From a virus (taxonomy: Duplodnaviria > Heunggongvirae > Uroviricota > Caudoviricetes): 5,999 bases of DNA. Location of the stretch: the IMG/VR virus record IMGVR_UViG_2740892045_000001. One strand, 5' to 3'. The position numbers and the translations under genes were made by a program. Below, piece by piece: positions 4,457 to 4,496 of this stretch (position 1 is its first letter; each line of letters opens with the position of its first letter). The notes under the pieces are model-generated. The model ran no database searches, was not told the origin of the DNA, and saw nothing but the letters and a program-made list of their open reading frames with translations.

Positions 4457-4463
4457 TCTCCGG
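4457..4463 (-). promoter_or_regulatory. Shine-Dalgarno for H (GGAG), unusually close to the AUG
   Basis: mRNA reads CGUCCGGAGA-AUG. Only 1 nt separates the GGAG core from the AUG, which is sub-optimal spacing and would predict weak independent initiation. Confidence 0.4.
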
Positions 4464-4466
4464 ACG

Positions 4467-4488
4467 AAAAAAAACCGCCGAAGCGGTT
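4467..4488 (-). terminator. Intrinsic-terminator-like hairpin with UUCG tetraloop and U8 tract between T and H
   Basis: Minus-strand RNA AACCGC-UUCG-GCGGUU followed by a U-run (8 U in total, two of them in the stem). It begins 9 nt after the T stop and is followed by the H Shine-Dalgarno and AUG. The stem is short (4 GC pairs plus 2 AU pairs), so it is at best a weak or partial terminator. Confidence 0.4.
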
Positions 4489-4496
4489 ATGTTGAC

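Follow-up and report, generated by a model that had tools for sequence, protein, structure and literature searches.

The junction between the T frame and the tape-measure gene H in a 5,999-nt stretch of phage DNA (hereafter the window) carries a short stem-loop followed by a run of U which, judged from its sequence and its recurrence among relatives, is a conserved element of the transcription-terminator type. Most likely, this terminator belongs to the conserved backbone of HK97-type tail clusters, placed where the G/T chaperone genes meet H and fused to the H ribosome site. As to its function, we lean, at somewhat better than even chances, towards a Rho-independent terminator that would stop polymerase without the Q modification and would be read through in lytic growth.

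The stretch comes from a lambdoid prophage of E. coli, of which it is the tail module. Its identity is 96-98% to vB_EcoS-689R5, PhiR49_2 and similar phages, and ~75% to the lambda-like tails of JLK-2012 and other Stx phages. Every gene lies on the minus strand in the order V, G, T frame, H, M and L, with an A8G slippery run just 5′ of the G stop, and the Pfam matches bear out the gene names V, G, T and H that had been assigned in a sequence-only reading. The features used below are as follows.

5185..5889, minus strand: V, major tail tube gene (Pfam: tail tube protein with Ig domain)
5185..4799, minus strand: G, tail assembly chaperone (Pfam Phage_TAC_1)
4787..4497, minus strand: T frame, tail assembly chaperone (Pfam Phage_tail_T)
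1223..4450, minus strand: H, tape-measure gene, 1075 aa from GTG (Pfam Phage_HK97_TLTM, TMP_3 and Tape_meas_lam_C)
5907..5929, minus strand: second terminator-type hairpin, ACCCGCC GCT GGCGGGT plus U7, in the gap between the tail-completion gene and V (from scan and fold)
4499..4497, minus strand: TGA stop of the T frame (G-T frameshift product), 8 nt 5′ of the T-H hairpin (from the reading frame)
4473..4488, minus strand: terminator-type stem-loop at the T-H junction, AACCGC (4488..4483), loop TTCG (4482..4479) and GCGGTT (4478..4473) (read and folded)
4467..4474, minus strand: U8 tract, its first two U forming the outer stem pairs and its end lying 16 nt 5′ of GTG 4450 (read)
4458..4461, minus strand: Shine-Dalgarno core GGAG, 7 nt from GTG 4450 and 1 nt from ATG 4456 (read)
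4454..4456, minus strand: in-frame ATG two codons 5′ of the GTG, probable decoy (1 nt from GGAG)
4448..4450, minus strand: GTG, probable true start of H (from alignment with the ATG starts of relatives)

Along the minus strand, the junction reads TGA, GTCAACAT, AACCGC, TTCG, GCGGTT, the T run, CGTCC, GGAG, A (4457) and ATG, or as RNA GUCAACAU-AACCGC-UUCG-GCGGUU-UUUUUU-CGUCC-GGAG-A-AUG-AGU-GUG, and the letters and coordinates given earlier for 4457-4496 agree with the sequence as read. The 40-46 nt from the T stop to the H start are non-coding; a GGAG placed 1 nt from the start is obtained only when ATG 4456 is taken as that start. The stem-loop has the composition of an intrinsic terminator (a GC-rich stem of about 5-14 bp with a loop of 3-8 nt), namely 6 bp with four GC pairs and a UUCG loop, with eight U (4474..4467) directly 3′ of the stem, and it lies on the transcribed strand, past a stop codon and in a non-coding gap of 46 nt. 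On the opposite strand, the stem has no U-run behind it. The hairpin alone folds with about -8 kcal/mol (-8.0 to -8.5; z = -2.9 against dinucleotide shuffles), and it was flagged as terminator-like in a terminator scan of the window. Defining a strict terminator-like site by a stem of at least 5 bp with at least three GC pairs, a loop of 3-8 and at least five consecutive T, we found exactly two on the coding strand of the window, the T-H hairpin and the one at 5929..5907 before V, compared with a shuffle mean of 0.18 (2% of shuffles reached two), and both fall in the two sizeable non-coding gaps among the tail genes (U-V and T-H). The family counts 65 distinct variants, of which that of the window is the weakest, and with so short and weak a stem (6 bp) termination may be inefficient. 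A permissive covariance-model scan of the whole window with Rfam 15 gave no match at 4440..4510 up to E 5, and at the V hairpin only sub-threshold ones (Trp_leader, 20.7 bits versus 41; isrK, 18.6 versus 50).

A switch between the terminator and an anti-Shine-Dalgarno fold was considered as well, since in longer context the fold of lowest energy joins CUUCGG (4483..4478) to CCGGAG (4463..4458) of the Shine-Dalgarno region. It was rejected as a conserved feature: the 71-nt fold is no better than shuffles (z = -0.97), relatives with other loops are unable to form the CUUCGG/CCGGAG pairing, and the L034 junction, alike in hairpin and ribosome site and different upstream, folds into the terminator.

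The occurrence of the element was followed in ~410 loci encoding relatives of the H N-terminus, gathered from species-representative genomes and viral contigs and spanning E. coli, Klebsiella, Enterobacter, Leclercia, Pantoea, Brenneria, Phytobacter and Pseudomonas. These loci collapse to 116 distinct upstream sequences, which are not independent samples because many share phylogenetic kinship. A strict terminator-like site stands at 107 of the 116 junctions, its T-run ending 11-19 nt (median 16) before the H start; an interrupted T-run with a hairpin was found at five more, and at four there was no hairpin adjacent to the H start. The background on the same strand elsewhere in these loci amounts to 36 strict sites over 451 kb (0.3% per 40 nt), many of them being the U-V hairpin. 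The hairpin had been proposed to be a real element and not a chance structure, a proposal open to the objection that the motif might be missing from the equivalent junctions of related phages; its presence at 107 of 116 such junctions against 0.3% per 40 nt disposes of that objection, and the element is therefore real.

What recurs at these junctions is the structure in many sequence guises. We counted 37 distinct core stems, among them AACCGC/GCGGTT, ACCCGCT/AGCGGGT, GCCCCAC/GTGGGGC, ACCCTC/GAGGGT, AGCTCGC/GCGAGCT, ACCTGC/GCAGGT and others; the T-run measures 5-10 among relatives, and T7, T8 or T9 among near-identical prophages. In a covariation set, an in-register alignment of 28 different hairpins having 4-nt loops, six of the seven stem pairs were altered on both sides and none of 500 shuffles matched the observed covariation score, a figure for pairedness that is partly circular because the aligned rows were picked by the hairpin scan; the occurrence statistics (107/116 versus 0.3% background) are free of this circularity. 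The structure is thus kept by compensatory change at homologous sites, and the conserved U-run points to termination proper and not to mere protection of RNA.

The closest described counterpart is phage HK97, to whose type the tape-measure protein of the window belongs by its Pfam matches, its first 150 residues being 90% identical to HK97 gp16. The HK97 records carry the annotation 'regulatory: terminator, putative' at three sites, between the tail-terminator and major tail genes, directly 3′ of the major tail gene, and 12 nt ahead of the tape-measure gene; the last of these, before gene 16 (8398..8422 of NC_002167 / AF069529), follows the gp15 moron and is taken to be its terminator. As in the window, the HK97 site comes after the G/T chaperones and directly before the homologous tape-measure gene (N-terminus MATLRELIIKISANS), and consists of a GC stem, a 4-nt loop and U8 followed by a ribosome site. 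The two differ in that the interval from T to the hairpin holds the 62-aa gp15 moron in HK97 and only 8 nt in the window, in that the HK97 stem (ACCCGCT/AGCGGGT, -12.4 kcal/mol) is stronger than that of the window (AACCGC/GCGGTT, -8.0), and in that H starts with ATG in HK97 and with GTG in the window. The T-H element is accordingly an ordinary intrinsic-terminator-type hairpin of a known kind, annotated in HK97 since the deposit of its record.

A specific motif shared with the hairpin upstream of V had also been suggested, which the alignment of the two does not uphold. They are 74% alike, ranking ninth when the eight same-strand terminators of PhiR49_2 are compared in all 28 pairs, and an early-region terminator of that phage is closer to the T-H hairpin (83%), ruling out a special kinship; CCGC...GCGG is the usual stem of E. 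coli terminators and the resemblance is generic. The V hairpin is itself conserved in JLK-2012, is annotated as 'putative terminator' in HK97, and was seen in most relatives whose flank extends that far.

The ribosome site of H had been described as cramped. By comparison with relatives, the codon at which H translation begins is most probably GTG 4450, from which GGAG lies at a normal distance, rather than ATG 4456. In all 98 junctions without the window's RBS/start block, H opens ATG-GCN-AC(N), that is M-A-T-L-R-E-L, and in all 98, as in JLK-2012 and HK97, the ATG aligns to GTG 4450 of the window (MATLRELIIK...). The 18 junctions with the window's block (including the L034 type) all have the GTG plus the in-frame ATG six bases 5′ of it, and both RefSeq/PGAP and the depositor of phage 689R5 annotate the H start at the GTG. 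The sequence GGAGAATG also occurs with the ATG out of frame (L183 and L185 types) and, in L332, precedes a retained canonical ATG; the V ribosome site is built like that of H (GGAGACGAGTATG versus GGAGAATGAGTGTG, or as RNA GGAGACGAGU-AUG versus GGAGAAUGAGU-GUG). Among relatives, the spacing from the Shine-Dalgarno sequence to the start is 4-9 nt and never below 4 (5-9 nt for GGAG itself), against a known optimum of 5-9 nt (PMC7264876). Attenuation by suboptimal spacing applies to a start less than about 4 nt from its Shine-Dalgarno sequence; the homologous GTG 4450 lies 7 nt from GGAG. Moreover, a strong Shine-Dalgarno sequence with a very short spacer physically keeps the 5′ codon from the P site, so that a downstream codon is used (PMC9841429). 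Very probably, then, the cramped site is an artefact of the choice of start codon, and the claim built on it is not supported by the comparison.

Initiation at H may nonetheless be weak in the window lineage for a different reason. The start lies in the context GUGUGG, with an out-of-frame GUG 2 nt 5′ of GTG 4450 at 5-nt spacing; converting the GGAG spacers places the two GUGs at about DtoStart 12/14, and GUGUG sites at DtoStart 12/14 are reported to initiate ambiguously, and a G at the fourth coding position to bring initiation down about 5-fold (PMC9841429). This weak context is specific to the lineage and is not a conserved design.

The junction is also a site of gene gain. Extra sequence of 277-1688 nt between the T stop and the hairpin is present in 76 of the 99 junction types in which the T stop could be placed; a 77th type, L257, has a gap of only 125 nt, and 23 have a short gap of 28-47 nt. 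At least one ORF occurs in 75 of the 76 longer gaps, the exception being the L257 type, with no ORF of at least 30 aa. These ORFs, which for the most part encode lipoproteins or small proteins of the membrane, fall into unrelated families, at least ten in number. Among them are a family of lipoproteins in 21 junction types, gp15/YebO-like proteins in 16 and Zn-ribbon membrane proteins in 14, along with several more proteins that are lipoproteins or carry a signal peptide. Without exception the inserts lie 5′ of the hairpin, and the distance from the hairpin to the H start is constant. The slot is empty in the window, JLK-2012, phage 1717, a Pantoea prophage and a few others. Thus, as far as the compared sequences tell, the T-H terminator is part of the tail-module backbone and not of any one moron, being present, and kept in its structure, with the slot filled or empty.

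Morons are described as carrying their own promoter and terminator, which lets them be expressed from repressed prophages, and HK97 gene 15, between the tail assembly chaperone and tape-measure genes, is the founding example (PMC3594210). Such cassettes, of which HK97 gene 15 and lambda lom are examples, are closed at the T-H slot by a terminator of the window's kind in 76 of the 99 junction types. The window differs from them: a factor-independent terminator is there in the form of the T-H hairpin, but the 40-46 nt hold no extra ORF, and a promoter scan of the minus strand found no promoter-like site 5′ of the hairpin (three in the whole window versus 4.1 expected). The window junction is therefore not itself a moron, and insulation there would have no obvious present target. 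A simple consensus scan likewise returned no promoter 5′ of the moron ORFs in L034 or HK97, so that the evidence for moron promoters rests on PMC3594210 and on a TTGACT hexamer that visual inspection of L034 turned up.

A late operon with elements of this kind is seen in PhiR49_2, a complete phage 96% identical to the window and of standard lambdoid layout. Its Q gene lies at 14.5 kb, 5′ of the genes for lysis, head and tail, all of which share one strand, and strict sites on this late strand follow Q (tR'), the tRNAs, the major capsid gene, J and lom, and stand at U-V and T-H. Five of these are intra-operon terminator-like sites, and because essential genes lie beyond them, late transcription must read through. 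Q-modified polymerase of lambda resists intrinsic terminators and reads through them. Q read-through in lambda is also treated in PMC7547250, to which public Term-seq and dRNA-seq data of EHEC Sakai (GEO GSE143631), whose Sp prophages have JLK-2012-type hairpins, belong. Comparable is a terminator predicted where the procapsid module of phage L and P22-like phages ends, in that a hairpin with a U-run stands inside an antiterminated late operon with a single promoter; it differs in gene junction and phage group, and both it and the T-H site are known as predicted sites. For terminators inside late operons, two candidate roles have been considered, partial termination or a stop for spurious transcripts that are not antiterminated, and which applies is "not known" (PMC8022706).

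We infer termination in vivo, its override by Q and insulation as the selected role, as follows. Polymerase without the Q modification, coming from the promoter of a prophage-expressed moron in the slot or from spurious promoters in the silent prophage, would stop at the T-H terminator, so that in the lysogen H and the tail genes beyond it would stay silent. Polymerase modified by Q, arriving from the late promoter, would pass the same site, so that all tail genes would be made in lytic growth. The window has the slot in its empty version, with no moron and the weakest stem of the family.

The role assigned to the hairpin in the sequence-only reading was one of dosage: partial termination in lytic growth, together with the cramped Shine-Dalgarno sequence, would set H below V and G in keeping with tail stoichiometry. 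Part of this stands, in that the hairpin is real and its place is precisely where the high-copy genes V and G give way to the low-copy gene H. A stem as weak as -8 kcal/mol would fit partial termination, which is among the two roles considered in PMC8022706, and in the window type H initiation is probably weak anyway, given GUGUGG and the competing GTG 2 nt 5′ (PMC9841429). The lowering of H output fares worse. An equally good terminator stands directly before V, the gene of the most abundant tail protein, contradicting the idea that these terminators lower the output of the gene downstream, and others follow the capsid gene, J and lom. The near-identical PhiR49_2 encodes Q, and Q-modified polymerase resists intrinsic terminators. 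Lambda shares the gene order V-G-T-H and the G-T frameshift logic but has no intergenic hairpin or U-run at this place: its H ATG overlaps the T stop (ATGGCTGA), and its H N-terminus is unrelated to that of the window. Furthermore, spacing is normal with the GTG start, and relatives have ATG at 4-9 nt, so no weak ribosome site is conserved. Because of the terminator before V, the presence of Q and the lack of such a hairpin in lambda, the dosage explanation is weak, and we regard it as unlikely.

Slightly less probable still is a role in mRNA stability, in which the hairpin would block 3′-to-5′ exonucleases and so guard the V-G-T segment, or would form a 5′ stem on a processed H message, either of which would make parts of the late transcript decay at different rates. 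In E. coli operons, hairpins between cistrons are well known to protect the segments 5′ of them, two stable hairpins bracket V-G-T here, and the hairpin annotated in HK97 after the major tail gene, having no clean U-run, looks more like a stabiliser. However, a U-run is needless for blocking exonucleases and yet stands at 107 of the 116 junctions, and stability leaves unexplained why morons always sit 5′ of the hairpin.

Equally improbable, in our estimate, is that the element is a relic, kept after the window lineage had lost a moron with its promoter and ORF, and now marking only where recombination joined the left end of the H block. The Zn-ribbon membrane-protein moron always comes with the exact hairpin of the window, CCGC-TTCG-GCGG (14 junction types), and L034 has hairpin, ribosome site and H sequence identical to those of the window with this moron upstream. 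BLAST similarity to Stx phages, LAU1 and HK97 starts at or within a few bases of the first base of the hairpin, which therefore also marks a mosaic boundary. Further points on this side can be named: the window hairpin is the weakest of its family, the T-run of the moron-less Pantoea relative L010 has decayed, and hairpins at moron-less junctions are all below the family median in strength (-8.0 to -11.2 versus -12.6 kcal/mol). Against this, the stem is intact with a T-run of 7-9 in the window-type junction, which is found in 876 of 5426 complete E. coli genomes, and stems are kept or compensated in at least three moron-less lineages while adjoining bases diverge. Between the window and JLK-2012, all 12 stem bases are alike and only 5 of 12 in loop and spacer, and phage 1717, moron-less too, has the stem AAACCUGC-UGUG-GCAGGUUU with the compensated pair CCTGC/GCAGG; stems so kept or compensated argue for selection on the structure even without a moron.

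Least probable by some distance is that the hairpin shields the H ribosome site and the U-tract serves as an S1 landing site, together raising H initiation (E. coli is known to have U-rich enhancers 5′ of Shine-Dalgarno sequences, H by our inference needs initiation of its own given that T is seldom translated, the T-run lies 11-19 nt from the start throughout the relatives, and a block of T-run and CG(T/C)C(C/T)GGAGA is common to prophages from E. coli through Pseudomonas), since common descent of a compact block of terminator and ribosome site can explain the fixed distance and the predicted accessibility of the Shine-Dalgarno sequence varies among relatives (median unpaired probability 0.5, range 0.14-0.89).

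Returning to a terminator bypassed by Q, we tentatively suggest, at less than even odds, that the block of terminator and ribosome site is a maintained docking slot, an insulator that stands permanently midway along an essential late operon. Were this true, HK97-type prophages could gain or swap genes for membrane proteins or lipoproteins without switching on their tail genes, the guests between T and H would be superinfection exclusion or defence genes expressed from the prophage, and the block would be kept by selection even when empty, as in the window. For the window itself the result matters little, in that the element is ordinary and the odd ribosome site vanishes with the homologous start. 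For the family, a slot in which ten or more unrelated families of small envelope proteins occur is a convenient place to seek prophage exclusion or defence genes, and the T-H terminator offers a concrete, testable case for the role of terminators inside late operons.

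In nucleotide comparisons with Stx2c/Stx1a phages, phage 1717, Enterobacter phage LAU1 and HK97, similarity was observed to set in at, or a few bases from, the first base of the terminator-type hairpin between T and the tape-measure gene H, so that the hairpin falls on a mosaic recombination boundary where the H block has its left edge. The features concerned, all on the minus strand of the window, are as follows.

4799..4811, A8 then G directly 5′ of the G stop TAG (4801..4799)
4478..4490, onset of similarity at the T–H hairpin
4467..4474, T-run of the hairpin
4458..4483, alternative pairing of CUUCGG with CCGGAG
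4429..4452, GUGUGG context of the H start
4419..4447, promoter-like GCGACA-17-TAAAAT
5907..5929, hairpin upstream of V

The T-run was found to vary between T7, T8 and T9 among otherwise near-identical prophages (L016-L095 of the loci carrying H relatives), as expected from homopolymer slippage. In the minimum-energy fold of a longer window-type context, CUUCGG, comprising the loop and its two flanking stem bases, one from each arm, is paired with CCGGAG, which includes the Shine-Dalgarno sequence, so that this pairing replaces the terminator hairpin. The pairing was rejected as a conserved feature: relatives do not preserve it, and it does no better than shuffled sequences.

Downstream of the hairpin, the H start is surrounded by GUGUGG, in which an out-of-frame GTG (4452..4450), 5 nt past the GGAG, overlaps the in-frame GTG (4450..4448) and opens a 7-codon ORF terminating at TGA 4431..4429. 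Initiation in both frames has been reported at GUGUG sites of comparable spacing, as has weaker initiation with G at position 4 (PMC9841429), and the GUGUGG context could reduce H translation in the lineage of the window alone. Within the first H codons lies the promoter-like site, with 9 of 12 matches, which is probably meaningless because three such sites occur in the window versus 4.1 expected by chance. Among the H relatives, a 287-nt contig of very low coverage (0.9) in the alphaproteobacterial Microvirga antarctica assembly (L014) encodes 81% of this enterobacterial tape-measure N-terminus, and is probably contamination of that assembly.

Elsewhere in the late operon, the A8G run at the G stop is expected to be the slippery site for a −1 frameshift from G into the T frame. 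Terminator-like hairpins mark several late-operon junctions of the near-identical phage PhiR49_2 (at 14979, 15645, 24431, 25960, 27400, 36780 and 37532); they lie at tR′, downstream of the tRNAs and of the capsid gene, upstream of V and of H, and downstream of J and of lom. The V hairpin in the window gave only sub-threshold Rfam matches, to terminator-containing families.

In 76 of the 99 related junction types, extra sequence separates the T stop from the hairpin, as in L034 (2108-2452), L023 (2080-2451), L004 (2294-2482) and L008 (2048-2431). At least 10 families of small envelope proteins, unrelated to one another, are represented among the ORFs in this slot, including lipoproteins with a KDPDSAKF motif, gp15/YebO-like proteins and Zn-ribbon membrane proteins, among others. 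The T–H slot looks like a hotspot for accessory genes expressed from the prophage.
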